A DNA stretch of 64,000 nucleotides from a virus, in IMG/VR virus record IMGVR_UViG_3300012936_000005, positions 1 to 64,000 of that record. The stretch is one strand, 5' to 3'. A program made the position numbers and the translations under genes. A model generated the notes under the pieces. It had not been told where the DNA came from. It saw nothing but the letters and a program-made list of their open reading frames with translations, and did not search any database. Shown in pieces: positions 7,780 through 41,851 of this stretch. Position 1 is the first letter of the stretch, and each line of letters begins with the position of its first letter.

Positions 7780-8361
7780 ATGCAAGTACTATATCTTATC
7801 CTCTTCTCTTATCTAGCCTATATGCTTATTGTTACTATTGGTATTACATATGGTTATCATAGATATTTTTCACACAGAGAATTTTCTGCAACACCTTGGC
7901 AAGAAGTTGTCATGCTTTACTGCGGTTTATTATGTGGAAATAGAAGTCCATTAGGATGGGTAGGTGTACACCGTATGCATCATGCATATGCAGATACACC
8001 GAAAGATCCGCATAGTGCAAAATATCAACCTTGGTATTCTATATTGTTTAGTTTATGGAGAGTAGATAGCATTCCGCGTAAATTTTTAAAGGATATGATT
8101 TCAAATCCTAGAGTAGTATTTTTTCACAAACATAGAAACTTAATTTATATTACAAATGCAATATTACTTACTTTAATTTTTGGATACAAGGCAATTATAG
8201 TATTAGCAATAATTTATGCTTTAGCCTACTTTGGCTTTGGCGCATTGAACTTTTGGGGGCATGACAGCAAAGGTCCGATTAATAATATTTGGGTAAATTT
8301 AATCGCACCGTTCGAAGGAAACCATAAAGATCATCATGAAATGGCGTTTAGAAGAGATTGA
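7780..8361 (+). CDS. membrane fatty acid desaturase (delta-9/DesC-like)
   Basis: Three His boxes HRYFSH, HRMHH, HKDHH; DTPKDPHS motif; hydrophobic segments. Confidence 0.88.
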   Translation: MQVLYLILFSYLAYMLIVTIGITYGYHRYFSHREFSATPWQEVVMLYCGLLCGNRSPLGWVGVHRMHHAYADTPKDPHSAKYQPWYSILFSLWRVDSIPRKFLKDMISNPRVVFFHKHRNLIYITNAILLTLIFGYKAIIVLAIIYALAYFGFGALNFWGHDSKGPINNIWVNLIAPFEGNHKDHHEMAFRRD

Positions 8362-8791
8362 ACCTCACATAGAGGATATTAAAGAACTGTTTGAAAAAAC
8401 ACAAGGACACAAACATGCAGATAACTATAGCAAGTGGCCTTTGTTTGAACATACCAAGTTTGCCCGCATGGGTTGGGATCCTCATTTAATTTATTACAGT
8501 GCTGGTATTGCTAGACCAGAATACAACGGCGGCATTAGAATTATGAGCCGTCATACTCGTGATCGAAATTATGATTGGGGTACAATGAAAGATGACTTGC
8601 AAAGAGGAAATGCTACATTAGGTTTTAGTACAAAAATGGCACTTGATATGGGCTATAAAGATATATGGGTAAGTAGAGAAGAAAATCCTAAACTACTAGA
8701 ATGGTTTCAAGAACATAGTTTTTATAATTGGAAAATTACACAAGAAGAAATTCCCTTAGGAGGACTGCAATGGGTCTTACGATTGGCATAA
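8336..8791 (+). CDS. hypothetical protein
   Basis: 151-aa ORF overlapping neighbours; no motif recognised. Confidence 0.7.
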   Translation: MKWRLEEIEPHIEDIKELFEKTQGHKHADNYSKWPLFEHTKFARMGWDPHLIYYSAGIARPEYNGGIRIMSRHTRDRNYDWGTMKDDLQRGNATLGFSTKMALDMGYKDIWVSREENPKLLEWFQEHSFYNWKITQEEIPLGGLQWVLRLA

Positions 8792-9237
8792 CTGGTCATA
8801 CAAGCGGCTTTGGAAAACATATTGCCAAAGAATGCAAAGAACTAGGACACGTTGTTAAAGGTTATAGTAGAGCAACAGGATATGATTTACATTTTGATAT
8901 AGAAAAAGTATTTGAAAATAAGATGGATTGTATGATAAATTGTGCAGATATCGGCAACGCCCAAGTTAATATTAGTATAAGAGCATATCGTAACAAAATT
9001 AAATGTATTAATATTGGCAGTAAAATTACAGAAGCAAAGGTTACAGATCATTGGGATATTATAAAAAAGGACAATAAAATTACACTAGAACATATGAGTA
9101 AAAAATTTAAGCAACCTTATCTCACATGGGGATTTACTAAAGGAAATCCTATATTGGAAAGTAATCCACAACTATTAGAAACAATCACTATTGATGATGC
9201 AGTAAAGGAAGTAATTAATGAGCTGGCACTTACATAA
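8770..9237 (+). CDS. short SDR/Rossmann-fold protein, apparently degenerate
   Basis: ITGHTSGFG, INCA, INIGS; no YxxxK; ATG at 8770 after AGGAGG. Confidence 0.7.
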   Translation: MGLTIGITGHTSGFGKHIAKECKELGHVVKGYSRATGYDLHFDIEKVFENKMDCMINCADIGNAQVNISIRAYRNKIKCINIGSKITEAKVTDHWDIIKKDNKITLEHMSKKFKQPYLTWGFTKGNPILESNPQLLETITIDDAVKEVINELALT

Positions 9238-9841
9238 TATAATTGCTCAATACGGAGATTTCCTACACTTGAAGCAACCAAAAATAAATTGCAGTCAAGT
9301 CCTAGAAGAATTAAAAAACTATGAATGGATAAAATATAATCCTGATAAACCAAATATTCCTAGAGACTGTATCAATGTTACTAGTTTAGATGGCAGTTTA
9401 GAAGGCTTTACAGGCACACTAATGGTACAAGGAGTAAATGCAGATAGCGATTTTAAGACTCCAACTGAAGTATATGAAAGTAGTAAGACCATACAAAAAT
9501 TATTAGAACCTTGGAAACCTTATTTAGGAAGAACACAATTTTTAAGATTGCCGCCAGGAGGATATTTTCCACCTCATCATGATGGTGGTAAAAAAGGTGC
9601 TCCAGATACTTTTAGATTAATTGTACCAATTGAAAATGCAAATCCTCCTGGATTTTGCTGGATGTATGGTGACGAAAATAATTACAAACCATTACAATGG
9701 GAAACAGGTAAATTATACTATCTTAACACAAACAAAAAACATTGGTTGTTTAATGCAAGTGCAAATGATAGTATATGGCTTACCTTGAATATATCAGCAT
9801 GTGACGAAACTGTACATATGATTAGGAGTTTCGTTCAATGA
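9218..9841 (+). CDS. Fe(II)/2OG oxygenase, Asp/Asn beta-hydroxylase-like
   Basis: LRLPPGGYFPPHHD, FRLIVP, LNTNKKHWLFN. Confidence 0.75.
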   Translation: MSWHLHNIIAQYGDFLHLKQPKINCSQVLEELKNYEWIKYNPDKPNIPRDCINVTSLDGSLEGFTGTLMVQGVNADSDFKTPTEVYESSKTIQKLLEPWKPYLGRTQFLRLPPGGYFPPHHDGGKKGAPDTFRLIVPIENANPPGFCWMYGDENNYKPLQWETGKLYYLNTNKKHWLFNASANDSIWLTLNISACDETVHMIRSFVQ

Positions 9842-10299
9842 TACCATATTTTGTTCCTGTAGATTTTATAAGCAAAGAAGATGTAGAGTTTTTAGAAAAC
9901 TTAGTACAATCAGATGAGGCAGATTTTAAAGCATATGATACTGTAAGCGGAAAAAAAGATGGTAATCTATGCTGGGATATAAACTTAGATTATTTTAACA
10001 GATTTAATTTGAACAGCTATACATTCTTTGTTCATCAAGAACCTTTTAGTAAAGTTATTTCTCATATAGATAATCCTAAATGGAAAAGAAATACTGTATT
10101 AATAATTCCACTGCTATGGCATAGAAATTATGCTCCATGCTATTTTGAGGATGGTCCTGTTATAGAATTTAGAACTCCTTATCTTTTTAATACACAATTA
10201 CCACACTATGTAAATAATAACGAATACCCAAGATATAATTTTCAAATATGTTTTGAAGAACCAATAGAGGAAGTTGCAAAATGTTTAATCCCCAAATGA
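9838..10299 (+). CDS. small Fe(II)/2OG oxygenase-like (DSBH) protein
   Basis: HID...FNTQLPHYV...R. Confidence 0.65.
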   Translation: MIPYFVPVDFISKEDVEFLENLVQSDEADFKAYDTVSGKKDGNLCWDINLDYFNRFNLNSYTFFVHQEPFSKVISHIDNPKWKRNTVLIIPLLWHRNYAPCYFEDGPVIEFRTPYLFNTQLPHYVNNNEYPRYNFQICFEEPIEEVAKCLIPK

Positions 10300-11033
10300 C
10301 CGAAGGTTTTGTTCACTGTGATCCTATAAGTGATACAAAAGAACTTACTACTTTATTTTATAACATGACTGAAGAAATTTGGCCTGATCTAAGTTTTGGT
10401 GACCAAACTTATCTAAATGTTTATATGCAACGTCCAAAAGATCTAATGAGTAAGAGAGACATATATAATGGCCTACGTGGGTTTGATATGAAAGAAGAAT
10501 CTAATTGGTTAAATTATGTTACAGAAACACAATATAAAACTGGTGTGCTTTATTATGTAAAACTACGTAAAGAGAATGCAAGAATAGAAGACCATCAATG
10601 GTTGAACATATACTGTTTTGTACACAATGATTTTAGAGAACTAGGAAACAAATATTGGAAAGAACTTGAACAAGCAATACCAGATCTAAGAAGTAATTAT
10701 TGGTTTAGTTATATGGAACATGACTGCGAATTTCAATGGCACACAGATGGTGATACAGGATTTAGATATCATCATGTATTGAATAACGACGGTGAAGGTA
10801 TTACTAGTAGTATTGAAACTAGTGACGGAAGTGTGTTCCGTAAACCGGGTGAAGCATTTATCCTTAACACAGCTAAGCCTCATTGTGTGGTACCAGCTAA
10901 AAGTGTAAGACTTCATGCTGTTGCAAGTGTTAATGGTCCGAAAAGCACAAGAAAAGATCACAACAATCAATGGCTAGAAGATACAAACACAACTTGGAAG
11001 GATTGGGAGCGTGAACACGGTTATAGTACTTGA
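10281..11033 (+). CDS. Fe(II)/2OG oxygenase-like protein
   Basis: WHTD...LNTAKPHCV...RLH. Confidence 0.65.
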   Translation: MFNPQMTEGFVHCDPISDTKELTTLFYNMTEEIWPDLSFGDQTYLNVYMQRPKDLMSKRDIYNGLRGFDMKEESNWLNYVTETQYKTGVLYYVKLRKENARIEDHQWLNIYCFVHNDFRELGNKYWKELEQAIPDLRSNYWFSYMEHDCEFQWHTDGDTGFRYHHVLNNDGEGITSSIETSDGSVFRKPGEAFILNTAKPHCVVPAKSVRLHAVASVNGPKSTRKDHNNQWLEDTNTTWKDWEREHGYST

Positions 11034-11532
11034 TAGCATATTTGACAAAGACTATCTACAACAACTAGACGAACTTTGCAAGGGAGAACTTTTACAATTA
11101 GATAGTGAAACAGGATCACATGTAGGCGAATATACAGACTACGAATGGCAAATGATTAAAAATGATATTAGGACTTCTCCACACAGACTAAAATTATTAA
11201 ACGAAATAGGTGAACATATTGGTAAAAGTTTACCTACAAAAGATTTAGAACCTATGCAACTGTTTGCAAAAAAGTTTACTCCTAGTAGTCGTATAGGCAA
11301 GCACAAAGAAGATCCAGAAGTATATGGCGACTGGGTATGGATGCTTTATCTTACAGACGAAACTGATGGAGAACTATGTACAGAAGATATGCGTATATTG
11401 CCAAAACGCAACAGACTTGTAATAATGCGTACAGGGTTTGACCATTGGGTAGAACCATGTACTGGCGAAAGACTTAATCTTAGTGGTTGGCCATTCATTA
11501 CAAAACAAGTGAGAGAAAGATGGAAAAATTAG
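11011..11532 (+). CDS. Fe(II)/2OG oxygenase (prolyl hydroxylase-like)
   Basis: HKE(D), MLYL, GEL, PKRNRLVI, HWV, RLNLS. Confidence 0.8.
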   Translation: MNTVIVLDSIFDKDYLQQLDELCKGELLQLDSETGSHVGEYTDYEWQMIKNDIRTSPHRLKLLNEIGEHIGKSLPTKDLEPMQLFAKKFTPSSRIGKHKEDPEVYGDWVWMLYLTDETDGELCTEDMRILPKRNRLVIMRTGFDHWVEPCTGERLNLSGWPFITKQVRERWKN

Positions 11533-12140
11533 ATAATTTTTTACAAAATACAAAGAACTTTAATTTTTGCCAACGTAACTGGAACTATGATAAAATTATA
11601 GATAAAGAAACTATTGAAAAACTTTTAGATATTGGACACGCCACTCCAACAAAACAAAGTTTACAAAATTTTACGCTAATAGCAATTACCAATAGGAATA
11701 TAATAAAACATTTAGAAAAAGCTAGTGTAAGTGATGACGATTGGGAAGGAGATCATAAAAAAAGAGTGGAAGCAGGACAAGTTCAAAATCCGCAAGTAAA
11801 TGCAAACGTATTATTTGTTTATATACGTAATGAAAAAATTTCTGAAAATCAAACTACTGTTGGTATTGAAATAGGCATTTCTGCGGGAGCTTTAGGATTA
11901 GCGGCAAATGAAATTGGTCTTAGAACAGGATTATGTAGATGCATAGATAAAGAACTAATTGACCCAAATCTTTTTGCTAGTTATAATTTACATGTAAATA
12001 ATATTGTGTTATTTTTAGGAGTAGGATATCCATTGCATACTAAAGACTTTATAAAGTTACCAAAACATACTGTACACAATAATATAGATTTTTATAATAG
12101 ATCATATCCTAAACAGCCACATACGAGAATAATTATATAA
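11520..12140 (+). CDS. nitroreductase-family flavoprotein
   Basis: QRNW, ATPTKQ, IGISAGALGLAANEIGLRTG, LGVGY; paralogue of 21355. Confidence 0.75.
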   Translation: MEKLDNFLQNTKNFNFCQRNWNYDKIIDKETIEKLLDIGHATPTKQSLQNFTLIAITNRNIIKHLEKASVSDDDWEGDHKKRVEAGQVQNPQVNANVLFVYIRNEKISENQTTVGIEIGISAGALGLAANEIGLRTGLCRCIDKELIDPNLFASYNLHVNNIVLFLGVGYPLHTKDFIKLPKHTVHNNIDFYNRSYPKQPHTRIII

Positions 12141-12616
12141 TGGAAAGAAAAAGATTTTATAACAACAGTCTAACTAGAAAGGGAAATACAGTTATCAAAG
12201 AAAGTCAGTGGCCTGTAGATAAAGAGGCGCTTGATATATTGATAGCAGAAAAACCAAACTTTCTTCCAACAATATTAGAGTATGATAGTAATTCAATTGT
12301 TTATGAATACGTTGAAGGTATATCTGTTGGAAAATATTTAAAAGACATAAAAGCTAATGCACAAGATATGGTTGAAATTTATGTTCAAATAAATGATATT
12401 TGGAAGAACTTTTTAGAACTTTCTAAAAAATATTGTAATGGTAAAATGATTTACCATAATGATCTCCATTTATATAATATGATATATTCACAAGGTAAAG
12501 TTATTTTAACAGATATAGATAGTATAACAATTTCAAACCATGTAAGTTTCCAAACCACACACAGTTATCTATTTCACCAAATGGAAGAAATATTATATGC
12601 TAGAATTCAAAAATAA
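12140..12616 (+). CDS. small protein-kinase-fold phosphotransferase-like protein
   Basis: VIKE, YEYVEG, HNDLHLYNM, LTDID. Confidence 0.65.
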   Translation: MERKRFYNNSLTRKGNTVIKESQWPVDKEALDILIAEKPNFLPTILEYDSNSIVYEYVEGISVGKYLKDIKANAQDMVEIYVQINDIWKNFLELSKKYCNGKMIYHNDLHLYNMIYSQGKVILTDIDSITISNHVSFQTTHSYLFHQMEEILYARIQK

Positions 12617-13142
12617 AATATTATTACACATTCCTAAATGTGCAGGAACAAGTATTCTGACAGCTCTTAAACTTGATGTTTGGAATGGTGACAATCACTA
12701 CAATGAAAATTATGATGTGCGTATTCACTACAATGATACTCAGCAAACACACATACCTGCAAAAGATATTAAAATAGACAAGCCAAAGGTTGCATTTGTA
12801 AGAAACCCTTGGGACAGAACAGTTTCAAGGTATTGGTATTGCAAAAAAAGGTACAAAGTACAAGAAACTTTTGAAGAGTTTGTGCAACAAAAAATAATGA
12901 AAGTAGATTACGACTGGGGTCCTCCTAGCTGGAGGTGTCAAAGTGATTGGTTAGATGAAAATACAGTTTTCTACAAAATAGAAGACGGTATAGAAAAAGT
13001 TTTACATAATGAATTTGGTGTTGACATAAAATTGCCAATAATTAACGGAATGAAAATTAATAATTATAAAATTGAAGATAAAAACACATATAATTTAATT
13101 GCTCAGTATTATGACAAAGATATAAAACTATTTAATTATTAA
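12597..13142 (+). CDS. sulfotransferase-family protein
   Basis: PAPS-binding motifs HIPKCAGTS and FVRNPWDRTVS. Confidence 0.85.
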   Translation: MLEFKNKILLHIPKCAGTSILTALKLDVWNGDNHYNENYDVRIHYNDTQQTHIPAKDIKIDKPKVAFVRNPWDRTVSRYWYCKKRYKVQETFEEFVQQKIMKVDYDWGPPSWRCQSDWLDENTVFYKIEDGIEKVLHNEFGVDIKLPIINGMKINNYKIEDKNTYNLIAQYYDKDIKLFNY

Positions 13143-13713
13143 ATACGTTGTGTAAAGTTTCCCAATTATATTCTGTATTACACACAAAACTTATTAAAGC
13201 TCTTTCTTTTTGTGGTGGCTGAACTTTGTGCCATACCGCAGTATTTAATAATACTGGAAGTTCTTTTACAGTAATCTTATCTAAAAATTTCCATTTTATA
13301 CTTTTTGCTTTTTCTGGATTGGTATAAAAGATTCTTGGATCGTTTATTTCACAATTAGGCTCTTCCCATATAGTATCGCAATCACCTGTTCCGTAAATTG
13401 GAAAATTTAAAACCGCTGTTATTTGTTTTCCTTTTGGTATAAGACTATATTGTCCTTGAACATTTACATCAAGGTGATGATGCACATGTTCTCCTGGTTT
13501 AATAATTAATATTCTAAAATGTCCGCTTAAATATTTTTTGTAATTTTTTAAAGGTTCTAATATTTTTATGTGTTCATCTATTTTTAAAATGGGAACAGGT
13601 TTAGATTCTGTGATTTCGCAATCTTTTTTATAAGTGTCTACAATTTCCTTTGCATAGTCTTGCCAGGCAGATGTAACACCTATATTACATTCTAAAAAAT
13701 ATTCATTAAACAT
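13132..13713 (-). CDS. Fe(II)/2OG oxygenase-like protein
   Basis: KPGEHVHHHLD, LNFPI, LNTAVWHKV, R. Confidence 0.7.
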   Translation of the reverse strand: MFNEYFLECNIGVTSAWQDYAKEIVDTYKKDCEITESKPVPILKIDEHIKILEPLKNYKKYLSGHFRILIIKPGEHVHHHLDVNVQGQYSLIPKGKQITAVLNFPIYGTGDCDTIWEEPNCEINDPRIFYTNPEKAKSIKWKFLDKITVKELPVLLNTAVWHKVQPPQKERALISFVCNTEYNWETLHNVFNN

Positions 13714-14317
13714 TTTCTAAATCATCTGTACCATTAAGACTAAACATAAGAGCAATTCTAGGTTTGCTACTCATGTTTACAACGGCATGTGGATATCCAA
13801 TGTTAAGGAAATAAGCATTTCCGTTATCTAAATTATATGCTTCTAGTTTACCTTCACGTTTAAATAAATTTATTACTTGTTTGTCTCCGTAAATAGGTAC
13901 AATACATCTAACAGCATAACTTACATCATAGTCAACATGGAACGGGATATTTTTTCCTGGAGCAAGTTTCGTAATTCTAATTCTGCTTGCTGGTGCTTTT
14001 AGTTGTGTAATTATTTTTTCAAAATAACTTCCTGTGTAATCTTCTGTAGGCACATTATATAAATGTTCTTCTTTACGTTTTAATCTTTCCTTAATACTTG
14101 CAGTATAGGGTAATATTTCACTAGGTGTAGTCAAATTAATTTGTTCAAAGTTATCATAAACATGAGCAACTAATTCCATATGGTTATCACACAACATTGG
14201 ATTTGCTGTTTTTACATCAACAAATTTTCCTGCAAGTGTGTCACAAGCATCTTGTAATTGTTTTAGGTCAATATCTAAATTGTAATTATGTATACTAGGT
14301 AAGTGTTTCTTATTCAT
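13706..14317 (-). CDS. Fe(II)/2OG oxygenase, Asp/Asn beta-hydroxylase-like
   Basis: RIRITKLAPG..IPFHVD, RCIVP, PHAVVN, R. Confidence 0.8.
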   Translation of the reverse strand: MNKKHLPSIHNYNLDIDLKQLQDACDTLAGKFVDVKTANPMLCDNHMELVAHVYDNFEQINLTTPSEILPYTASIKERLKRKEEHLYNVPTEDYTGSYFEKIITQLKAPASRIRITKLAPGKNIPFHVDYDVSYAVRCIVPIYGDKQVINLFKREGKLEAYNLDNGNAYFLNIGYPHAVVNMSSKPRIALMFSLNGTDDLENV

Positions 14318-14942
14318 TAATTAGTCCTTTCCATTTACAATACCTTACATAATTTTCCCATGTATTGTAAGGCCAAAGCAAAAAACTTGCTATTTTTCTT
14401 GGTTGATTATGGCTTGATTCAATTCTATGCCAGTTGCCAATGTTAAGTAAAACAGCATCTTTTTTTGTTTCAAATTTATCTATAATTTCGAATTCTTCTG
14501 TATCATTGCGTGGCAAATTTCTTTTGTCCCAGCTTTTATACTTATTAAGTTGTTTGTCAAATCCAAAAAATGTTATATCTCCTACAGGTTCACTAAGCAA
14601 AATATTTACAGCCGCCGGACAAGTCATATGTTGGGGAATTTCATTATGGATATTATGTTTATTATTATCAATATGGTATCCATATAATTCTCCAGGCATC
14701 ATCTGCATAATTTTAAAATGATCTAAAAATGCATCTTCAAAAATATTAAACATATTTAAAAGTCCGTCAAGTTTTAAATCTTTGACTACTTTTTTTGAAA
14801 CATAATAAACATTTTCATCAAATACTTTGCAGTCCATTTTGTCTTTGTATTCTTGCGATAAATCATTCCATATGTTATCAATATAATTAAGATCAGTTCT
14901 TAAAGAGTCCGAATCAATATTTAAATTGTATGCACTTCTCAT
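14310..14942 (-). CDS. Fe(II)/2OG oxygenase-like protein
   Basis: MPGELYGYHID, WHRI, R; paralogue of 14939. Confidence 0.7.
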   Translation of the reverse strand: MRSAYNLNIDSDSLRTDLNYIDNIWNDLSQEYKDKMDCKVFDENVYYVSKKVVKDLKLDGLLNMFNIFEDAFLDHFKIMQMMPGELYGYHIDNNKHNIHNEIPQHMTCPAAVNILLSEPVGDITFFGFDKQLNKYKSWDKRNLPRNDTEEFEIIDKFETKKDAVLLNIGNWHRIESSHNQPRKIASFLLWPYNTWENYVRYCKWKGLINE

Positions 14943-15604
14943 CTTGCTAAAATAACTCCTTTTGCCTTAACTGCTTCAACAATTCCTTGCCAACTATTGT
15001 AGGGCCAAAATATAAAACAAGCACTTGATCTTGGTTGTTCTACGTCTTCGCTTATAATTGTGTGATGTGCTGATGTGTTAAACAATGTTGCCTTGTCTGT
15101 TAATCTGAATCTGTCTACTTCTTGTAGTGTAGTCATATCTTGTCCCATTGTATCAGAGGAAATATATTCGTTAACACTATCAGGAAATAAATCTCCGTTA
15201 TTTGAAAATGCCCAAGGCCATAACTTTCTAAGTTCAGGATCAATATACCATACAGTAGTATCTCCTACAGGCTTGCTAAGAAGTATGTTTACATTACCAG
15301 GATGTTGTATATCCATAGGAATATCTTTGTGAAAATTTTGTTCGTTACTATCAACATGTGGCAAATATTTTTGTCCAGGATACATATTTAGAAAACGTAT
15401 GCCATCAACAAAACCGTTGTTAAATATTTCTTTAAAATTTATAATAGCATCACAACCCTGTTGCTCGACTGTTTCATCAGAAACATAAAAGCACATATCG
15501 TCATAACCTGCATATTTGTATTTAGGATTGTTAAGATGCAGTAATTCTTCTCGTACTTGAGAGATATCTATGTTTAACTCATATGCACACGAGAACATAA
15601 TCAT
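14939..15604 (-). CDS. Fe(II)/2OG oxygenase-like protein
   Basis: YPGQKYLPHVD, FNTSAHHTI, R; shares VNILLSxPVGD and WPYNxW with 14310. Confidence 0.7.
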   Translation of the reverse strand: MIMFSCAYELNIDISQVREELLHLNNPKYKYAGYDDMCFYVSDETVEQQGCDAIINFKEIFNNGFVDGIRFLNMYPGQKYLPHVDSNEQNFHKDIPMDIQHPGNVNILLSKPVGDTTVWYIDPELRKLWPWAFSNNGDLFPDSVNEYISSDTMGQDMTTLQEVDRFRLTDKATLFNTSAHHTIISEDVEQPRSSACFIFWPYNSWQGIVEAVKAKGVILAR

Positions 15605-23104: not shown

Positions 23105-23109
23105 AGTTT

Positions 23110-23138
23110 ATTATAGCACCTTATGTTAATTTTGTCAA
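23110..23138 (-). promoter_or_regulatory. consensus sigma70 promoter with extended -10, probably leaderless
   Basis: Minus strand: TTGACA-17 bp (ending TGC)-TATAAT-AAACT-ATG. Confidence 0.85.
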
Positions 23139-23143
23139 TCATT

Positions 23144-27707: not shown

Positions 27708-27712
27708 ATATG

Positions 27713-27720
27713 TACTTATC
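27713..27720 (-). promoter_or_regulatory. late promoter variant GATAAGTA, probably leaderless
   Basis: Minus strand GATAAGTA-CATAT-ATG; no SD. Confidence 0.55.
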
Positions 27721-30848: not shown

Positions 30849-31369
30849 TATGTTAGTACCCTTTGCATTGATAAAACTATTTTTAATTGTGATGTATAAA
30901 ATGCATCTACTCCATGATATCCGTTAGCTATATACCATGCGTCAGCATCTAAATATTTGAAGTGTAATCCGTTTTTGTTTTTAATTACTGCTATATTTTT
31001 TAAATGTGCATCTTGATTAACAAAAAATCTGTTATCGTTCCATTCACTACTTAATCCCATTGATGCTGTCCATGTATGATTAATACATTTGAACAGTCTT
31101 ATATAATCTGCTTTAGTTAAGACTTTACTCTTATGCGGTTCTAATAGTTTGTACAAATCTGTTTCGATGCCCTCTAAATATTCCATTGAGTATGTATGCT
31201 CATCTATTAAATCTATTATCTTTACAATATGAGGAGTTCTATTTTGCAGATTTTTATAACAACGAAACCATTCTTTAGTAAGTGGCTTTCTTTTTAGAGT
31301 CTTAATTAAAATATTATTTTTAGTATCATGTACTATCCTAGATACATCTGTGTTCCATATTTCTTTCAT
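30848..31369 (-). CDS. small protein-kinase-fold phosphotransferase-like protein
   Basis: LIK, HIVKIID, MEYLEG, QDAHLKNI, LDAD. Confidence 0.6.
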   Translation of the reverse strand: MKEIWNTDVSRIVHDTKNNILIKTLKRKPLTKEWFRCYKNLQNRTPHIVKIIDLIDEHTYSMEYLEGIETDLYKLLEPHKSKVLTKADYIRLFKCINHTWTASMGLSSEWNDNRFFVNQDAHLKNIAVIKNKNGLHFKYLDADAWYIANGYHGVDAFYTSQLKIVLSMQRVLT

Positions 31370-32070
31370 TATTTTACGCCAATTCTCATAAATCTATTAT
31401 ACTTTGGCAACTCTAAGGATCCTGAATAAAAGCAGTCCATCATTGGAGATTGTTCTTTAAATTCCAAAGGATTTTTTACACAATTTACGTGATCCTTCAC
31501 ATCGAAAAAATTGTTAGATTGTAAAACAACTAAGGTACCATTTGGTATTTTTTCATACCACTTATTAAATTCTTTGATATGTTCACAACTTGTATTGATC
31601 ACAGTATCAGGACAATCTGTTATATCTCTACTCATTCTGTTATTAGCTTTGCTCCAAGTTTGCCAAGTATGTTTATTATAATCAATATCCATTATATCTT
31701 GCGTTATTGCTTTGAATTGCCAATCTTTTTTTACTTGATTGCGATTTATTGTATCTGCTATTTCTAAACAACTATCGTCTATGTCAAAACTTCTAATTTT
31801 ATCTATTGAGCAACGACTTCTAAACAACATGGCCGCAAGTGTAGCATACCAACCAGCACACAAAAATACAGTTCCTAATGGCACATCAATATCTTCTAAA
31901 GTGTTAACTAACCATCTTTTGCTTTTAAGTTGTCCCCAACTTAAAGCATCTGTCAAATCAGCTTTATGATTATCCACAGCATTACGCAAATTATTGAATA
32001 TAGGATTGTCAGTTAGAACTAACATCCTTCCAAAAATATCGTTATCGTCTTTCCAATTAATGCTCATCAA
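31369..32070 (-). CDS. putative class I methyltransferase-fold protein
   Basis: VFLCAGWYA, SFDID, D..D, VINTSCEH spaced like Rossmann MTase motifs. Confidence 0.5.
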   Translation of the reverse strand: MMSINWKDDNDIFGRMLVLTDNPIFNNLRNAVDNHKADLTDALSWGQLKSKRWLVNTLEDIDVPLGTVFLCAGWYATLAAMLFRSRCSIDKIRSFDIDDSCLEIADTINRNQVKKDWQFKAITQDIMDIDYNKHTWQTWSKANNRMSRDITDCPDTVINTSCEHIKEFNKWYEKIPNGTLVVLQSNNFFDVKDHVNCVKNPLEFKEQSPMMDCFYSGSLELPKYNRFMRIGVK

Positions 32071-32740
32071 ACTTTTTCCTTAGCCATTCAAAATCATTTA
32101 TTAACCCAAGATCAGCCCCGCTAGAAAGGCCAAACTGCATACCATCCCTAGCACCTCTAATCGCAAATTCACCAAACTCTCTATCGTGTCCCACGGTTGT
32201 CCAAGTTTTAAGTCTTCCATTTGTTTCTTGCTCCTTTTGTCTATCTATTGTTTTACTTGATAGTTTAGCACATTCTCTAAAAGCACTTTTCCAAGTATTA
32301 AAAGGATCTGTGTTGAATGCTGTTATATTACTTACTTCGTTCATAACTTTAAATTTATCACTTATGCTTGTAGTCATATCGTTAGTATTTGTATCCATAT
32401 TTTTTGTTAATGTAGTTGGAAATAATTTTACACCTCCATAACCATAAACAAGATCATTAATTGGATTCATACATCTGTATACATGAACTAGATCCTTTTC
32501 TTCTGTAGTGTATCCAAAATTAAATTCATCTACAATTACAGCATCTCCATCAACTACATAAAAGTAACTTGAGTTTGCAAGTTTGGCCGCTTCTACATGT
32601 GCGTTATGAATGCCTTTAACATCTTTTACACGTTTTACTCTATCACCAAATACTCCGACAGTATTGAATCTTGAATAAAGATTGTTATAATTTTCTTCTG
32701 CATTTGGTTCGTGATAGCTTATAAAAATAATATCATACAT
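32057..32740 (-). CDS. GT-A fold glycosyltransferase-like protein
   Basis: FYVVDGD DxD motif after AH..AA; paralogue of 34100. Confidence 0.6.
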   Translation of the reverse strand: MYDIIFISYHEPNAEENYNNLYSRFNTVGVFGDRVKRVKDVKGIHNAHVEAAKLANSSYFYVVDGDAVIVDEFNFGYTTEEKDLVHVYRCMNPINDLVYGYGGVKLFPTTLTKNMDTNTNDMTTSISDKFKVMNEVSNITAFNTDPFNTWKSAFRECAKLSSKTIDRQKEQETNGRLKTWTTVGHDREFGEFAIRGARDGMQFGLSSGADLGLINDFEWLRKKFDEH

Positions 32741-34100
32741 TTTTACAAATCTCCAAAAATTGTTCGTACTCAGGAAAAACCTTTACAAAATTTACATCTC
32801 TTCTTTTGTCATATTGTTTTGTAAACCTAAAAAACATTTTTTGAGCTTCTTGCTGTTCTTTCCAAAAGTCGTCTTTGTTTTTAAGTCTGTGCTCTACATC
32901 TGATACAATGCGTTCTAGCTTTACAGTCTCAATCTGTTTGAAGCCATGATGGTCTGTGTTTTCTTGCATAAATTTTAATGCAGGTTTTAAATAATCATCT
33001 ACCACTTGTTCATTTGCTATTTTAACATCTAAGAATGCAGGATTTCGCACATACGGAATGTCAATTAGTATCCTTTGGTTTCCTGGATGCCTACCCCAAT
33101 ATGTTGACTTTAAATATAGCACCCAGATCAAAAACGACTTGAATGTTGGTAAACTATAAATGTTAAAAGCACTCATGAAACTTATTTTACTTGCAGTATG
33201 TCTTGCAAAGTATTCGATGTTATCAGTAAACAATCGCCAGTCCATACCAAATCTACTATATTCTGCTTGAGTACCTGTACTTTCTGCACTTGTGTATAAA
33301 CAAAATTCTCTAATAGCATTTGAATCTTCTAACTTCTTTATAGACTTTGTAAATCTTTTCCATAAATCTTTAGGTGGGCATCCATTACTGTTAATTGCAA
33401 ATTTTAAATTGGGTTGCGGATGTTCAATTAAGTAATCAATCACTCTTTGAGTATGTTTACTTAACAGAGGTTCTCCTCCTGTAATACGGAAAGTATGCAT
33501 ATGTTTTACTGCTTCTGGAAACCATTTCCAAAATGCTTCAATATATGGATTATCTTCACGCTCAGGTATAGGCGTTTCGTTAGGATCAATCATATTGTAT
33601 GCCCAAGTGTTTAAATCATATGGTCCTTTTTGCTTAACTTCTTCCATCCATTTACTACTAAATGGCGGACCACAATATGCACATTTGAAATTACATACAT
33701 TACTAAAACTAATTTCTACATATCTAGGATAAAAATCTTCGTCTCCTGTAAAGTTGCTAATTGTATCGTAATCGCTCCAACTAAACGCATCAGCACTTTT
33801 GTAAACTCTATCACTAAACTTATCTGTGTTGTCTTCGATACGCCAGCAGTAATCGCACTCGCCTGGGCGTTCATTTTTTAGCATTTGCTTTCTTACATTT
33901 TTTTTGAAGCCTGTATTATGAAGTGCATTAGGATTTTTTGCAAGTTCATCTAAATCAATCCTATGTGCTTTTACATGATGACAACTATGATTTATACCTG
34001 TGCCTAAGTGAATTGTAACTTGTGTCCATTTGGCAAGACAAAATCCGCACCCAACTTTATCTAGTTTTTCTTTAACTTCTATTGGTTCACCTTTAAGCAT
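32733..34100 (-). CDS. radical SAM enzyme with N-terminal twitch domain (subfamily C)
   Basis: FCLAKW..SCHH..CDYC; CNFKCAYC; TGGEPLL. Confidence 0.92.
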   Translation of the reverse strand: MLKGEPIEVKEKLDKVGCGFCLAKWTQVTIHLGTGINHSCHHVKAHRIDLDELAKNPNALHNTGFKKNVRKQMLKNERPGECDYCWRIEDNTDKFSDRVYKSADAFSWSDYDTISNFTGDEDFYPRYVEISFSNVCNFKCAYCGPPFSSKWMEEVKQKGPYDLNTWAYNMIDPNETPIPEREDNPYIEAFWKWFPEAVKHMHTFRITGGEPLLSKHTQRVIDYLIEHPQPNLKFAINSNGCPPKDLWKRFTKSIKKLEDSNAIREFCLYTSAESTGTQAEYSRFGMDWRLFTDNIEYFARHTASKISFMSAFNIYSLPTFKSFLIWVLYLKSTYWGRHPGNQRILIDIPYVRNPAFLDVKIANEQVVDDYLKPALKFMQENTDHHGFKQIETVKLERIVSDVEHRLKNKDDFWKEQQEAQKMFFRFTKQYDKRRDVNFVKVFPEYEQFLEICKNV

Positions 34101-35020
34101 TAATTTTCCTTATCAATGAACTGCTGGTTGCCGCCTCTGCTTGGATTTTGATAAACAGTTTTAAAAAAAGAGCTTTGTTCTTCGTTGAGAGGTTGTATTG
34201 AAATAGGTATTTCTAAATTGTTTACTAAATCACTTCCGTAATTAAAAATTTCTGTATGTAAAACATCTTCGGGCATTTGATCACGTCCTGCCCAGAGATT
34301 GTTAAGATATTCAAAGTCTCGTACATTTACATAATCCCAATCACTTAACATAGTCATACTAAGTCCTTCTCTGGCTCCTAATATGGCCCAGTTTCCGTTT
34401 TGTACATCTGCTCCTACCATTAACCAAATCCATAGTCTATGTAAATTTTTCCAGTGTCCTTTTAAGAACTCTTCTTTGGTCGGCTTGACTCCTCTGTCAA
34501 GTGCCATTTTTACACCTTCACGAAATCCTGCTCGCCAAGCCTGATGTGGAGTTTCGTTATTATGTACATCTGAATAACAACTGTTTTGTTGAATATACTG
34601 TAGGTCCCAACAAAAATCAACCTGTGCAGACTGATTATTAGGATCAGCGTTTTCGTGTGTACGCATATTTAACACAAATTCTTTAGGCCAACATTTTAAT
34701 CCGCCGTTACCATACATCAAACCGTTTATACTATTTTTTCCGCACCAACTAATCACACTGTTGGCTAAGTCTGTATGTTCGTCAAAATCTAAAACTTGGT
34801 TTATAAAATCTTGACGAATTGTGTTATCGCCGTCGACTGTTACAAATCTATCTGTTTCTGATAATTCAGCACAGGCTTTATGTGCCGCATCTGACCCTTC
34901 TACACCGTGTACTCGTTTTGCCCAAGGAACTTTTGTAAGTAGATCAGCATAATTTTTTTCAGCATTTGGTTCGTCATAGCTTAGGTATATTATATCTAAT
35001 TCTGCAATTTTAACTTTCAT
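34100..35020 (-). CDS. GT-A fold glycosyltransferase-like protein
   Basis: SYDEPNAE, AH..CA, FVTVDGD, YGNGG, FREGVK. Confidence 0.6.
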   Translation of the reverse strand: MKVKIAELDIIYLSYDEPNAEKNYADLLTKVPWAKRVHGVEGSDAAHKACAELSETDRFVTVDGDNTIRQDFINQVLDFDEHTDLANSVISWCGKNSINGLMYGNGGLKCWPKEFVLNMRTHENADPNNQSAQVDFCWDLQYIQQNSCYSDVHNNETPHQAWRAGFREGVKMALDRGVKPTKEEFLKGHWKNLHRLWIWLMVGADVQNGNWAILGAREGLSMTMLSDWDYVNVRDFEYLNNLWAGRDQMPEDVLHTEIFNYGSDLVNNLEIPISIQPLNEEQSSFFKTVYQNPSRGGNQQFIDKEN

Positions 35021-35562
35021 TATAACTCCTTATACATACAAGTTGCCATATCGCAATTAGCGTAAACACTGTATGGTCCTTTTATATTTAAAGGTTTAGA
35101 TTCGTTCGATGCAATGTTAAATGTAAGTTGTTCATACAAAATATGGGGGTCACCTTTTTTTGTAAAACTAAAACTTATTTCTTTTTGTAGATCAACATTT
35201 GTAGTTTTCATTGTATCTAATAGTTCAATACCCGTATTAATATAACATCTTTTGGTAACTTTGTCAACAGTCAATAACAGATCGTACATGATTGATTCGT
35301 CAACTGGTTTAATTTCAATGAATTTTGCTTCATGTTGTACATAGATATTTTTCTTAAGTACAAATTTCTTATCACTACGATTATAAGCAACAACATAGTC
35401 TGTCATTTTTTCTTTCAAACTTTTAATAGGTTCTACTTCTTCTTCAGTAACTTTTATGTGTTGGTATCCTTCTTCTATACTAGGACCTATACTAAAAATT
35501 CTTCCAGTCTTTTGATTGAAGCATACATATTGTTGTGTATGTGTGCTAACGTGATGCATCAT
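35020..35562 (-). CDS. hypothetical protein
   Basis: 180-aa ORF, AGGAG RBS, coupled to neighbours. Confidence 0.7.
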   Translation of the reverse strand: MMHHVSTHTQQYVCFNQKTGRIFSIGPSIEEGYQHIKVTEEEVEPIKSLKEKMTDYVVAYNRSDKKFVLKKNIYVQHEAKFIEIKPVDESIMYDLLLTVDKVTKRCYINTGIELLDTMKTTNVDLQKEISFSFTKKGDPHILYEQLTFNIASNESKPLNIKGPYSVYANCDMATCMYKEL

Positions 35563-36355
35563 ACTCTCCTATAATATCTTCAGCAAATTTTTGTTCAGTG
35601 TAATGAACTATACCATGTTGCATAAAATTTCCTATTTTTAAATTAAAGTCTTCATCTAAATAATAAGGTATCCTATCTAACCAGTTTTCTGGAGGGTTTG
35701 ACCATCCTTGTATTTTACTTTTCATATGTACGAAGCTAGGAGACTTTACAGTATAATCTTCTATGTTGTTTTCTAGTATAGCAATAGAATGATTTACATC
35801 CATGCTACTTAATTTAGGTATTTGTTTAGGTGCATAAATTTCATAATATTTTTCGTAATTTTCACATATGCGATTCAAAGTTTTATAATACTCTAATGCT
35901 GTATCATCTTTTTTAAAATAATGAAATGCACAGTAAATGTTTGGCAGACTATTTGCTGTAAAAGCCTTTCGATAATAATCATTATCAATAAGATGATTTC
36001 TGTAATCTCTTACATTAGAAATAAATCCAATACTTTTTTGTGCAAAATATTTCCACCAGTAACTAATGTCAGATAAAAATATCATATCAGTATCTAACAC
36101 AACTGTTTCTTCATACGGAGTTAAATGAAATACTTTCCATCTATGCTCTGTCTTATAGAAACTTTTTGCGTGTTTGTCGTGCCACGGAACTTCTATAATT
36201 TTATCAAATAGTCTTTTGTATCTTCTTGGCACTCTATCACTTGTAACAAGAGAAATGTTTTTTATAGATTGTGTCTTTTTGATGCTCATCGCACATAAAC
36301 ATGCTTGTAGGACATAATTATCGCCCATAGCAACCATAATATATCCTTTATCCAT
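35546..36355 (-). CDS. glycosyltransferase-like protein (GT8-like)
   Basis: A..CAMSIK, FDKII, LTPYEETVVLDTDMIF, VHMK. Confidence 0.7.
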   Translation of the reverse strand: MDKGYIMVAMGDNYVLQACLCAMSIKKTQSIKNISLVTSDRVPRRYKRLFDKIIEVPWHDKHAKSFYKTEHRWKVFHLTPYEETVVLDTDMIFLSDISYWWKYFAQKSIGFISNVRDYRNHLIDNDYYRKAFTANSLPNIYCAFHYFKKDDTALEYYKTLNRICENYEKYYEIYAPKQIPKLSSMDVNHSIAILENNIEDYTVKSPSFVHMKSKIQGWSNPPENWLDRIPYYLDEDFNLKIGNFMQHGIVHYTEQKFAEDIIGEYDASR

Positions 36356-37172
36356 TTATAAGTTCTCCTAGACTAAATTTATTCATTACATGAACATTAC
36401 AGTCTTTTGTAGATGCTAGTATATATTCACCGTTGTATTTTTCTTTTTGCAATAAAAATGTAAGTGAGTTATCTTTAATTGTTTTTATGAAGTCTCTGTC
36501 TAGTGTATAGAACATAGTTCCTGGTAATGTTTTAGCCCAGTCACTATCAGTAAATCCGTTCATCATATGGATAGCAATACTAAAGACATGGTCATTCCTA
36601 AAATTTCTACTTCCTATGTCATAAACTTGTTCATAGTGGTTCCAATTTTTAACCAAGTGTTGCAATAGATCAAAAAATATTTTTGTCTCATTTGTTTTTT
36701 TAAAACAAAAGCAAGTAGCCCAATAAAACGGAATTCCAGTATTGTTTATAAAAGAGAATTCATCATGCTTGCGCCATTCACACAAATCTACTCCGTGCTT
36801 ATAAATTTGAAAATCATTTTTGCTATCAAAGGCATGTTTTAATGAATTATTACAAATTACATAATCTGTATCAAGAACTAATGTGCTTTCGTAAGGCGAA
36901 AGATCATAACTTTTTACTCTATCATTATTTTTAAATTGTAATTGTTGATGATGCAAAGTACCGTTGTAATAACGTTTGTAATTAGAATTATTATCTTCTA
37001 TCTCTATTACTTTGTCAAATAGACCAACATTTTGTAATTCACTTGCTGTTGAAGTGACCAATGTAGTAGGCAAATCCAAATGTTTTTTCACACGTTCTGC
37101 AAGTATTTCTGCTTGCCTTAAATAATCTACTTTTCCGTTATTGTGTGCAAAACATAATACACCATTAGACAT
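36348..37172 (-). CDS. glycosyltransferase-like protein (GT8-like)
   Basis: FDKVI, LSPYESTLVLDTD, RND, HVMNK; paralogue of 35546. Confidence 0.7.
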   Translation of the reverse strand: MSNGVLCFAHNNGKVDYLRQAEILAERVKKHLDLPTTLVTSTASELQNVGLFDKVIEIEDNNSNYKRYYNGTLHHQQLQFKNNDRVKSYDLSPYESTLVLDTDYVICNNSLKHAFDSKNDFQIYKHGVDLCEWRKHDEFSFINNTGIPFYWATCFCFKKTNETKIFFDLLQHLVKNWNHYEQVYDIGSRNFRNDHVFSIAIHMMNGFTDSDWAKTLPGTMFYTLDRDFIKTIKDNSLTFLLQKEKYNGEYILASTKDCNVHVMNKFSLGELING

Positions 37173-37512
37173 CTACTAAACCTTCTACACTACGTTTGGT
37201 GCTGAGAATCTTATATTCTTCTAAGTACTTATTTGTTGCATCTGTATATTGTTGCATTGCTTTTGATACAAAGTCAACAACACTTTCTATTTGTATTGGT
37301 GTATTGTTATCATCAACTATGACTGTTTTCTCAATGCCGCCTTTACTAAGCATAAAAACAAAATTTAGAAGTTCTTTTGTGATTGTAAACTTGCCGTTAT
37401 CGGAGTACATTACAAGTTCGCCTAAGTATTTCTCGTGTAATATACGCTTTTGTGCATTTAGAGTCGCAGTAAAATTTGAAAATTCTAGTGCTTTTTCTAG
37501 TGCTTCGTCCAT
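37165..37512 (-). CDS. hypothetical protein
   Basis: 115-aa ORF with AGGAG RBS. Confidence 0.75.
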   Translation of the reverse strand: MDEALEKALEFSNFTATLNAQKRILHEKYLGELVMYSDNGKFTITKELLNFVFMLSKGGIEKTVIVDDNNTPIQIESVVDFVSKAMQQYTDATNKYLEEYKILSTKRSVEGLVDV

Positions 37513-39979: not shown

Positions 39980-39996
39980 TTATTAACCCCTAATTG

Positions 39997-41850: not shown

Positions 41851-41851
41851 A

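Follow-up and report, generated by a model that had tools for sequence, protein, structure and literature searches.

An island of radical SAM enzymes, oxygenases and glycosyltransferases between fibre genes in a marine phage contig: a possible glycoconjugate-tailoring system

What would a phage do with ten radical S-adenosylmethionine (SAM) enzymes, a battery of iron- and 2-oxoglutarate-dependent (Fe/2OG) oxygenases and four glycosyltransferase-like proteins, all encoded beside its fibre genes? The question is raised by the first 64 kb (64,000 nucleotides, here called the window) of the 85,042-bp contig IMGVR_UViG_3300012936_000005, whose G+C content is about 33%. Positions 7780 to 37512 of the window, here called the island, hold 39 open reading frames (ORFs), which we name by their lower coordinate. 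A preliminary description, made from the sequence alone, proposed that the island builds and decorates a glycan or other adduct, most plausibly on the fibres or baseplate of the virion, and named the system as a candidate for an undescribed one.

We read the island, tentatively and at clearly less than even confidence, as a late-expressed system that builds and tailors a glycoconjugate, the acceptor most plausibly being a protein of the adsorption apparatus. Sugar chemistry in general as the function of the island comes closer to an even chance, still slightly short of it. The reading is put forward because radical SAM families occur together with GT-A-fold glycosyltransferases in three settings (the lineage of this phage, the Campylobacter phage CP220 and an operon of Bdellovibrionales), because GT-A proteins form fusions, because the nearest relatives of some of the enzymes act on small molecules, and because there are precedents for carbohydrate tailoring by such enzymes. 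An acceptor in the adsorption apparatus is favoured because the enzymes mostly look cytoplasmic, come without export functions, and are probably read with the fibre genes and, in the close lineage, kept beside them. The sugar part of the earlier proposal is thus strengthened by the GT-A pairing, while its fibre or baseplate acceptor is as conjectural as before.

The island is compact. Ten ORFs are read on the plus strand (7780-13142) and 29 on the minus strand (13132-37512), and the two arms converge at 13132-13142. At 34 of the 37 junctions the neighbouring ORFs overlap and at two they abut, in keeping with the overlapping or coupled arrangement described before; the last junction is a 39-bp gap, the only one. 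Intergenic space is therefore too small anywhere in the island for a small precursor gene, and Pfam scans gave neither a scaffold synthase nor an exporter among the island ORFs; scans and gap sizes together agree with the absence of all three that had been noted. Transmembrane-like segments occur in one ORF (7780), and the other 38 look soluble. The coupled, overlapping ORFs, the gene order that a relative shares for some 33 of the 39, and the domain fusions described below lead us to regard the island as one selected unit.

Near-identical sequence, defined as at least half of the sampled words, was found in 14 marine metagenome runs from 2014-2025; with any part of the window counted there were 20 rows, from eight studies. 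The left boundary (7746/7780) and the convergent junction are both spanned, at about 99% identity, by contigs from four runs that belong to four studies, and the right boundary is reproduced in three related contigs (L033, L039 and G004). Since independent contigs span its left boundary and the convergent junction, the island is not a chimera or an assembly artefact, a danger that the preliminary description had pointed out. G004 is collinear with the entire contig: about 33 of the 39 island genes occur in order, at 38-92% amino-acid identity, and the flanking genes are 53-89% identical. Replacements in G004 cluster at the distal ends of the arms, at about 11487-14942 around the convergent junction, where the 11487-13142 end of the plus arm is replaced; a few are internal swaps. 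L033 and L039 retain the run from fibre genes over GT8 and GT-A genes to radical SAM genes. The presence in many runs, the collinearity with G004 and the clustering of replacements indicate that the island is inherited and maintained, with turnover of cassettes at defined places.

Further, contigs of several runs diverge to unrelated sequence at 7733, after the fibre-like gene, and at 22216-22460, near the start of 21989, indicating that variants with different cassettes occur together. Other joints were also seen, for example from 10590 to 11827 in four runs; with only 21 letters on the shorter side, we draw no reading from them.

The source is a marine jumbo myovirus. Genes for a portal, a gp5-like hub with lysozyme, proteins of the baseplate hub and wedge, SbcCD-like nucleases and a gp55-like late sigma factor are present on the contig. 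The baseplate wedge and the AAA-ATPase share 32-48% identity with their counterparts in cultured jumbo phages such as Phosso, SCTP-2, Atu_ph07, PA5oct and Rak2-like phages. CheckV estimates a completeness of 23% for the contig and of 26-50% for collinear relatives of 99-180 kb, from which a genome of about 370 kb is estimated. A megablast search with 22 kb of the island against phage records gave no match, and no cultured phage matches at the nucleotide level. The G+C fraction of the island, about 0.29-0.35, is slightly below that of the flanking structural genes (0.35-0.40).

How is the island expressed? The T4 late-promoter consensus, TATAAATA, is depleted in the window (three copies against 12.9 expected), and in the whole contig three of its four copies lie 29-35 nt ahead of a start codon. 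Two copies belong to the segments 6672-6693 and 39997-40018, one in each, which together form a perfect 22-nt inverted repeat. They lie 34-35 nt before the fibre genes that head the two arms, where late-promoter motifs had indeed been reported, and the T4-type late promoters of the region are confined to these genes. On the minus strand the fibre gene 38483-39979, then 37549, 37165 and the rest of the arm follow downstream of the late promoter, a 17-nt core of which is kept ahead of the orthologous fibre gene in G004. No terminator-like intergenic site was found between the fibre genes and the island. We infer that late transcripts read through from the fibre promoters into the island.

The late sigma factor of 278 aa is encoded at contig positions 71434-72270 on the plus strand (L159:7434-8270; phrog_12791, E 3e-79). 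The short late-sigma profile phrog_234 (181 positions) aligns only to the C-terminal 120 residues of this protein. In addition, a putative sigma-70 promoter occupies the sole gap of the island (23105-23143), and it could add earlier expression, by host polymerase, of the distal minus arm from 23104 to 13132.

All ten radical SAM enzymes counted in the preliminary description (16839, 21989, 23144, 24085, 25145, 26307, 27716, 28738, 29781 and 32733) match the Pfam profile PF04055 and keep CxxxCxxC, which places each of them in the superfamily. Seven exceed the cut-off of 29.5 bits; 27716, 28738 and 29781 score 23-27 bits, have an invariant CxxxCxxC and conserved C-terminal Cys motifs, and are clear paralogues of 23144. 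The ten fall into four groups: N-terminal twitch (24085, 26307, 32733), the SPASM-like family that we call A1 (23144, 27716, 28738, 29781), the 21989/25145 type, and the cobalamin-type 16839.

The first group belongs to NF033640, the NCBIfam model of twitch domain-containing radical SAM proteins (cut-off 170 bits), a sequence class without known substrate. Full-length scores are 421 bits for 26307, 302 for 32733 and 194 for 24085, with the other seven below the cut-off, and the N-terminal cysteines are invariant in the alignment. Its member 26307 has more than 2,300 homologues, with more than 120 clusters at 80-97% identity, on contigs of up to 353 kb. The folds nearest to its AlphaFold2 model (predicted local distance difference test, pLDDT, 84.6) are SkfB, CteB, anSME, SuiB and BlsE, the last a nucleoside-sugar decarboxylase.

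For the probable class B enzyme 16839 the nearest solved relatives are TokK and CysS, and for the TauD-type oxygenase 19077 it is TfdA; all three, like BlsE, act on small molecules. The KedN5 family model NF033712 matches 16839 at E 3e-45 (154 bits, cut-off 700), and its B12-binding Pfam match is weak (19.7 bits against a cut-off of 32.1).

The four glycosyltransferase-like ORFs of the preliminary description are borne out as two GT8-like and two GT-A-fold proteins. Single sequences of the GT8-like pair, 35546 and 36348, stay below Pfam significance. A profile from 13 homologues matches glycogenin-1/2 in the PDB (E 3e-7 to 5e-5) over the half with the DxD motif, D88 and D90 are invariant, and the pair is assigned to GT8 accordingly. 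In a Foldseek search 34100 matches RmlT, WrtF, SunS/ThuS, TarS and A64R, the capsid glycosyltransferase of PBCV-1, at probability 0.96-0.99 with low TM-scores of about 0.3. Its DGD motif is invariant (D63, D65) and its Atlas clusters are automatically named GT2-like; on these grounds it is placed among GT-A-fold (GT2-like) proteins without a match at the sequence level, a profile search of the PDB with the GT-A family having given none.

The counterparts of 32057 and 34100 are fused into a single protein in L043, L053 and L090, and the L043 fusion additionally includes a methyltransferase-like part, the counterpart of 31369. The L043 protein (L043:3555-7223, 1,222 aa) consists of GT-A, GT-A, about 14 tandem helical repeats of 22 aa with a NVHSLFRLLGEEHEDLRKAVVE-like consensus, and the methyltransferase-like domain. 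A radical SAM domain inside this fusion was considered and ruled out: the stretch consists of the helical repeats and has no CxxxCxxC.

Twelve Fe/2OG oxygenases had been counted. Of these, two are firm by Pfam and seven are probable by near-cut-off Pfam matches, paralogy or hhalign, and the other three (9838, 16177 and 19898) are recognised by their HxD...H pattern alone, with no profile connecting them to known oxygenases. Two ORFs exceed the Pfam cut-offs, 13706 and 19077 (TauD, E 7e-27; TfdA in the PDB, E 3e-9), and two are just under, 9218 (Asp_Arg_Hydrox, E 6.5e-4) and 11011 (2OG-FeII_Oxy_3, E 1.2e-5). 13132, 14310 and 14939 form one blastp family, linked at about 90% to 13706 by hhalign, as is 10281 (90.7% to the 13706 family); probabilities of 90-91% thus tie these four to the Asp/Arg-hydroxylase family. 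20596 is connected to 9218 by blastp (1e-13) and by hhalign (100%). In 19898 the residues H106, D108 and H223 are invariant across 17 homologues, and a PDB profile search with this family gave no match.

Taken together, these enzymes suggest a possible sequence of events. Late transcripts would run on from the fibre genes into the island, and a short glycan would be attached to a cytoplasmic acceptor by the GT8 pair and the GT-A pair, drawing on nucleotide sugars of the host. The acceptor would most plausibly be a co-produced protein of the adsorption apparatus, candidates being 37549, the fibres and a giant protein of 5,024 aa. Radical SAM enzymes of the twitch/SPASM types might then oxidise, epimerise, dehydrate or decarboxylate sugar carbons, the cobalamin-type enzyme could add C-methyl groups, the Fe/2OG enzymes could hydroxylate, and enzymes dependent on pyridoxal phosphate (PLP) or transferring methyl, phospho and sulfo groups would complete the decoration. 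Through cassette swaps, chiefly at the distal arm ends, strains would come to differ in their product.

For such chemistry there are precedents. The twitch/SPASM radical SAM enzymes BtrN, NeoN, AprD4 and AviX12, the class B enzyme GenK and the Fe/2OG enzymes AviO/EvdO all tailor carbohydrates, and orthosomycin pathways hold several glycosyltransferases, methyltransferases, a radical SAM epimerase and Fe/2OG oxygenases. Virus-encoded glycosylation of virions is established for the chlorovirus capsid, the fibrils of mimivirus, and the capsid and tail of mycobacteriophages.

The island is not alone in its content, and related arrays of several radical SAM genes are found in hundreds of viral contigs. 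When IMG/VR was scanned with the A1 family, more than 550 relatives were recovered. In the 80 viral loci that we kept, each of at most 21 kb, radical SAM ORFs number 13 at the most, with 6 as the median. PF04055 is matched 23 times in one 179-kb contig; 22 of the matches fall within about 3.9-39.4 kb, and the array is bounded on one side by homologues of the left flank of the window. In L096 two GT-A genes, an N-terminal twitch radical SAM gene, a PLP enzyme and a methyltransferase-like gene stand together.

Among cultured phages, genes of the A1 type were found in Campylobacter group II phages only. In CP220 they lie just behind gp5-like and PAAR baseplate genes, in a cluster that comprises five radical SAM genes, a pentein-type amidinotransferase and, adjoining the radical SAM genes, two nucleotide-diphospho-sugar transferases. 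As in the window, the genes lie in the tail/baseplate region of a large myovirus (CP220/CPt10, PMC2853527); three of the five belong to the A1 family (26% identity to 23144) and one is of the 21989/25145 type. The CP220 cluster differs in its size of 10-12 genes, its amidinotransferase, the lack of an Fe/2OG battery and of any detected N-terminal twitch radical SAM, glycosyltransferases without detectable sequence similarity to those of the window, and a microaerophile host. It is the largest difference between CP220 and the otherwise similar CPt10, and was called an interchangeable, non-essential module without known function (PMC2853527).

The third setting is cellular. The N-terminal twitch alignment was scanned against one genome per species (185,579 species), seeded by two short patterns, and gave 140 relatives, nearly all in Bdellovibrionota and including complete chromosomes; since the scan was seeded in this way, the taxonomic skew may be partly a sampling effect. 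At the loci of these relatives, 253 N-terminal twitch or A1 genes were found, in 76 of 78 loci. The same cellular loci also hold the 21989/25145 type, the 9218 oxygenase family and the 18338 PLP family (the latter in 10 Bdellovibrionota loci), and after these the neighbour met most often is a GT2 family (32 members in 16 loci), which ranks third among all neighbours of the arrays. Eight Bdellovibrionales loci share a core-genome operon of an unnamed protein, two GT2 genes, two and sometimes three radical SAM genes, and a transporter of the major facilitator superfamily (MFS). No member of NF033640 above cut-off was found in 14 model genomes.

In this operon (L116:3780-14689; also L108, L112 and L115) the radical SAM proteins are of the N-terminal twitch type and the first protein is soluble, with 510-830 aa; a PDB profile search with it was empty and a homologue search gave only unnamed relatives. 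The operon is flanked by housekeeping genes, gcvP/class II tRNA synthetase and rlmN/pfkB/gdh. The chromosomal arrays of L098 and L083/L121 have about ten N-terminal twitch paralogues within 20 kb, with Fe/2OG and PLP-family genes, and there are several arrays per genome. Three metagenome-assembled genomes (L081, Rickettsiales MED657; L090, Neisseriaceae; L103, Crocinitomicaceae) hold the phage-type island at 58-83% identity; these are probably misplaced phage contigs, and the placement of L081 among Rickettsiales might be a weak hint at the phage host. L081 has 14 radical SAM genes in 17 kb.

A number of observations weigh against a glycoconjugate on the adsorption apparatus. No firm match to an enzyme of nucleotide-sugar synthesis was found in the island, and the TM-scores of the GT-A model are low, as given above. 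The nearest folds or NCBIfam models of several radical SAM enzymes are peptide or protein maturases. Modification of a virion protein is something that we infer, and each acceptor named is a candidate only. Since the last gene of the bacterial operon encodes an MFS transporter, a product that is exported or sits in the membrane fits equally well or better. Accessory genes are known to gather beside fibre genes (PMC7029224), which makes the position alone weak evidence. The fibre linkage that had been expected in relatives is seen in G004, L033 and L039; it is missing for the bacterial arrays, which have no tail genes, and for single A1-type genes between SbcD and SbcC or right after SbcC (L059:8988-12646, L029:7930-10929, L079:349-2393). 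The latter look like mobile cassettes, and they imply that A1-type enzymes can work outside such an island. Finally, in the 360-kb relative G002 there are no more than four radical SAM genes, and these are scattered.

Of the alternatives, remodelling of the host envelope survives best, although we consider it unlikely: lipopolysaccharide (LPS), capsule, lipid A or membrane lipids would be altered, for example to block superinfection or the adsorption of progeny to debris. GT8 is mainly an LPS-core family in bacteria, and the same idea was proposed for glycosyltransferases of pelagimyophages (PMC7029224). The MFS transporter of the Bdellovibrionales operon fits it, as do the large multi-transmembrane protein that adjoins one bacterial array, the PAP2 membrane phosphatase near the CP220 cluster, and the membrane desaturase-like ORF and sulfotransferase of the island itself. 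The Asp/Arg-hydroxylase type, to which many of the oxygenases belong, includes the lipid A hydroxylase LpxO. However, all ORFs except 7780 look soluble, none of the 39 was recognised as a flippase, bactoprenol transferase, polymerase, ligase or exporter, and late promoters come late for superinfection exclusion. Nor does the island resemble a Gtr-type O-antigen cassette, its sole transmembrane ORF (7780) matching a desaturase.

A small-molecule pathway is rather less probable. Here a host metabolite (nucleotide sugar, cyclitol or nucleoside) would be turned into a tailored aminoglycoside-, nucleoside- or oligosaccharide-like compound that acts in the cell or after lysis. This would leave the linkage to fibre genes and their co-transcription unexplained, and the phage island is without a scaffold-forming enzyme, resistance gene or exporter. 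The kinship to TokK, CysS, TfdA and BlsE, the bacterial MFS transporter and the single radical SAM genes elsewhere all speak for it, as does an enzyme palette like that of aminoglycoside and orthosomycin tailoring. Those pathways likewise apply radical SAM, Fe/2OG and PLP enzymes, kinases, methyltransferases and glycosyltransferases to one oligosaccharide scaffold; they differ in having the scaffold synthase, resistance gene and exporter that the island lacks. No such family's cut-off is reached in the island, and its setting is a late operon of a lytic phage.

Direct modification of proteins is in our view improbable. Here amino-acid side chains in virion proteins such as the fibres or the giant 5,024-aa protein would be hydroxylated, cross-linked, epimerised or C-methylated, with glycosylation as one step among several. 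The genes are probably co-expressed with structural genes, and the best folds for the N-terminal twitch type include SkfB, CteB, anSME and SuiB. Asp/Arg beta-hydroxylases hydroxylate proteins in eukaryotes, and the peptide glycosyltransferases SunS/ThuS are among the fold matches of 34100. The NCBIfam models nearest to 21989, 24085 and 25145 are also peptide maturases, but the matches are far below their cut-offs and lie mainly in the common radical SAM core. In seven of the ten enzymes the radical SAM motif comes early in the chain; in the A1, 21989 and 25145 types it starts within about 20-45 residues of the N-terminus, too close for a leader-recognition domain to fit in front. The class B and TauD-type enzymes resemble enzymes of small molecules. 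In addition, with a largest gap of 39 bp and no protease or transporter family among the 39 ORFs, the island does not have the make-up of a cluster for ribosomally synthesised and post-translationally modified peptides, although a precursor might be encoded elsewhere.

To the same low degree we expect that there is no single pathway, the island being an insertion-tolerant spot that collects independent accessory genes for metabolism, salvage or detoxification, or counter-defence. This is suggested by the number of radical SAM matches per related contig, which ranges from 4 to 23, by the single cassettes between SbcD and SbcC, by the variants that diverge at 7733 and by the interchangeable, non-essential module of CP220 (PMC2853527). 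The families are also expanded in predatory bacteria, which digest foreign cell contents too. A loose collection would hardly keep about 33 of 39 genes in order while the core genes are only 53-89% identical, and it does not account for the coupled, overlapping ORFs, for the fusions of glycosyltransferase and methyltransferase-like parts or for the pairing with glycosyltransferases in three lineages.

Least likely, and very improbable, is that bases of the phage DNA are glycosylated and tailored to escape restriction: the enzyme types do overlap with phage base-hypermodification clusters, which combine kinases, glycosyltransferases, PLP enzymes, radical SAM enzymes and TET/JBP-type Fe/2OG enzymes, and a QueD-like gene lies a few kb from the CP220 cluster, but no such cluster was recognised among the 39 ORFs by Pfam or PHROG (in a contig covering 23% of the genome), with TET/JBP, AlkB, hydroxymethylase, DpdA and T4-type alpha/beta-glucosyltransferase unmatched, the oxygenases belong to the Asp/Arg-hydroxylase and TauD types, the genes lie in the late structural region and not with the replication genes, and the modification of CP220 DNA (100% 7-amido-7-deazaguanine) is attributed to separate 7-deazaguanine genes.

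How far is a glycoconjugate-tailoring island new? Multi-radical-SAM modules have been reported before, in CP220/CPt10 in 2010 and as cassettes of pelagimyophages in 2020, and were left unexplained there; the claim of an undescribed system must be narrowed accordingly. What is new here is the scale, the wiring to late promoters, the definition of the enzyme families, the fused glycosyltransferase and methyltransferase-like forms and the link to Bdellovibrionota. The main survey of marine jumbo phages makes no mention of such arrays, and we found no paper on N-terminal twitch radical SAM arrays in phages or Bdellovibrio.

The host recognition cluster of pelagimyophages and cyanomyophages is similar in several ways: it is a variable island in the structural module, from the same habitat, with fibres, GT8 and radical SAM cassettes, and close relatives differ in their cassettes (PMC7029224). 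The window fits it in content and in its place among fibre and baseplate genes, and the landmarks VrlC and gp14, which border such clusters, were not identified in the contig. The phages described there are T4-like with genomes of about 150-190 kb, unlike the phage of the window, with about 370 kb and baseplate and ATPase genes closest to those of jumbo phages. Modification of the host O-chain was proposed for that cluster, and its radical SAM and oxygenase content was not described (PMC7029224).

In PBCV-1, mimivirus and mycobacteriophages, viral enzymes decorate surface proteins in the cytoplasm without depending on secretion by the host, and are encoded in clade-specific clusters; PBCV-1 A64R is one of the fold matches of 34100. 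Those systems use classical enzymes of nucleotide sugars, namely dehydratases, aminotransferases and acetyltransferases. We know of no virion glycosylation system with radical SAM and Fe/2OG batteries. The island may be an extreme, well-conserved case of a phage island for host recognition or virion decoration, with an open chance that its chemistry is new.

A broader proposal is that radical SAM arrays with GT-A proteins constitute one widespread system of jumbo phages, Campylobacter phages and Bdellovibrionota, which places hypervariable, radical-tailored glycans on prey-recognition structures by novel chemistry; this we regard as doubtful. In any case the puzzle of the multi-radical-SAM phages, posed by CP220 in 2010, is far wider than it seemed, extending to abundant and cosmopolitan marine jumbo phages and to predatory bacteria, repeatedly together with glycosyltransferases. 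If the product decorates the adsorption apparatus, there would be a chemical layer of host recognition that is invisible to sequence-based prediction of host range, and the island would offer a wealth of new carbohydrate chemistry, both radical and oxidative. Since a small version of the system exists in a phage that is in culture, CP220, the question is testable now.

The coordinates of all features are given in Table 1.

Table 1. Predicted features of the island and its flanks, in window coordinates.
Position	Strand	Feature	Evidence
6672-6693	+	late-promoter element TTTGATATAAATACATATAACA	35 nt upstream of start of fibre-like 6712
6712-7746	+	fibre-like protein, 344 aa, heads plus arm	tail-fibre PHROG E 7e-5 over 40 C-terminal residues (weak)
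7780-8361	+	membrane desaturase/hydroxylase-like	Pfam FA_desaturase E 1.2e-9, above cut-off
8336-8791	+	no Pfam/PHROG match	
8728-9237	+	Rossmann/short-chain dehydrogenase/reductase (SDR)-like, lead only	Epimerase E 0.014; FabG-like PHROG E 0.0019
9218-11532	+	four oxygenase-like ORFs: 9218, 9838, 10281, 11011	profile, hhalign or motif
11487-13142	+	nitroreductase 11487, RIO-like kinase 12140, sulfotransferase 12597	Pfam E 5.8e-7, 1.7e-5, 2e-7, all above cut-off
13132-15604	-	four Fe/2OG-type ORFs: 13132, 13706, 14310, 14939	13706: Asp_Arg_Hydrox E 1e-5, above cut-off
15579-16842	-	methyltransferase-like 15579 (lead only); 16177	15579: EIGxxxGG motif, CmcI E 0.069
16839-18359	-	radical SAM, cobalamin-type (class B) methyltransferase-like	Pfam Radical_SAM E 3e-11; PDB TokK E 2e-47, CysS E 1e-30
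18338-19099	-	PLP fold-type-I-like enzyme, lead only	conserved DGAW, SLSK; weak PDB matches
19077-21354	-	TauD/TfdA-type 19077, HxD...H protein 19898, Asp/Arg-hydroxylase-like 20596	Pfam/motif/blastp
21355-22095	-	second nitroreductase-like, lead only	Pfam E 0.0014 (below cut-off); blastp 2e-5 to 11487
21989-23104	-	radical SAM	Pfam E 1e-13; homologues in 57 of 80 viral loci, 80-84% identical in many
23110-23138	-	sigma-70-type promoter TTGACA-17-TATAAT, extended -10 TG	12/12 consensus matches, predicted
23144-24085	-	radical SAM/SPASM, founder of A1 family	Pfam Radical_SAM E 1e-9, SPASM E 9e-6
24085-25152	-	radical SAM, N-terminal twitch	NF033640 E 3e-57
25145-26317	-	radical SAM, 21989/25145 type	Pfam E 2e-11; nearest NCBIfam models peptide maturases, far below cut-offs
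26307-27707	-	radical SAM, N-terminal twitch	NF033640 E 5e-126; most conserved gene of island
27716-30848	-	three A1-type radical SAM paralogues: 27716, 28738, 29781	blastp 1e-23 to 1e-44 mutually and to 23144
30848-32070	-	kinase-like 30848, methyltransferase-like 31369, leads only	motif / Atlas neighbour
32057-32740	-	GT-A-fold glycosyltransferase-like, paralogue of 34100	blastp 2e-30 to 34100
32733-34100	-	radical SAM, N-terminal twitch	NF033640 E 5e-90; between two GT-A genes
34100-35020	-	GT-A-fold glycosyltransferase-like	AlphaFold2 pLDDT 84.9
35020-35562	-	180-aa protein beside GT8 pair, no family match	homologues in 5 viral loci (blastp)
35546-37172	-	GT8-like pair: 35546, 36348	paralogues, blastp 8e-9
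37165-37512	-	115-aa protein, no family match	13 viral loci; always with GT8 pair and 37549
37549-38463	-	Ser/Thr/Gly/Asn-rich protein, 304 aa, between last fibre gene and island	no Pfam/PHROG match
38483-43933	-	three tail-fibre paralogues: 38483, 40009, 41852	PHROGs and shared N-terminus
39997-40018	-	late-promoter element, inverted copy of 6672-6693	34 nt upstream of fibre gene 38483-39979

The accessory enzymes of the preliminary description fare unequally. The desaturase, nitroreductase 11487, the RIO-like kinase and the sulfotransferase exceed their Pfam cut-offs, while the second nitroreductase, the PLP and SDR enzymes, the methyltransferases and the second kinase are leads. For the last of these, 30848, there is a motif and HipA_C at E 0.12. 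31369 has a neighbour cluster in the Atlas (score 0.95) of which 21% of the members carry Methyltransf_31, and a PDB profile search with its family gave no match. The weak PDB matches of the 18338 family are to ACC synthase and aminotransferases (E 0.007-0.1). A PHROG scan of 20 unannotated ORFs gave almost no matches, and Pfam at E up to 10 only weak leads. 15579 and 16177 are 79-92% identical in G004, and iterated searches with the 35020 family recover 11-14 sequences.

Fibre genes had been described on both sides of the island. The right flank is firm: 38483 and 41852 match tail-fibre PHROGs at E 1e-16 to 1e-17, and 40009 is assigned through the shared N-terminal region. The N-termini of the three (about 300 aa) are 33-37% identical (blastp 1e-32 to 1e-39) and their C-termini are unrelated, so they look like a set of alternative receptor-binding fibres. 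The left flank, 6712, is weak by its PHROG match, and a tblastn search with it against phage records gave no match; its homologues flank the island in L006, L014/L015, L071, L076 and G004.

Between the last fibre gene and the island, 37549 is a candidate structural protein or acceptor. Its family has duplicated copies, and the L052 member has a Gly-rich N-terminal extension. The giant ORF of 5,024 aa lies at 44565-59639 on the minus strand, between the baseplate wedge and the fibre genes, and is rich in Thr, Asp, Ser and Asn. Its homologue in G004, of which a 2,983-aa piece was covered, is 63% identical.

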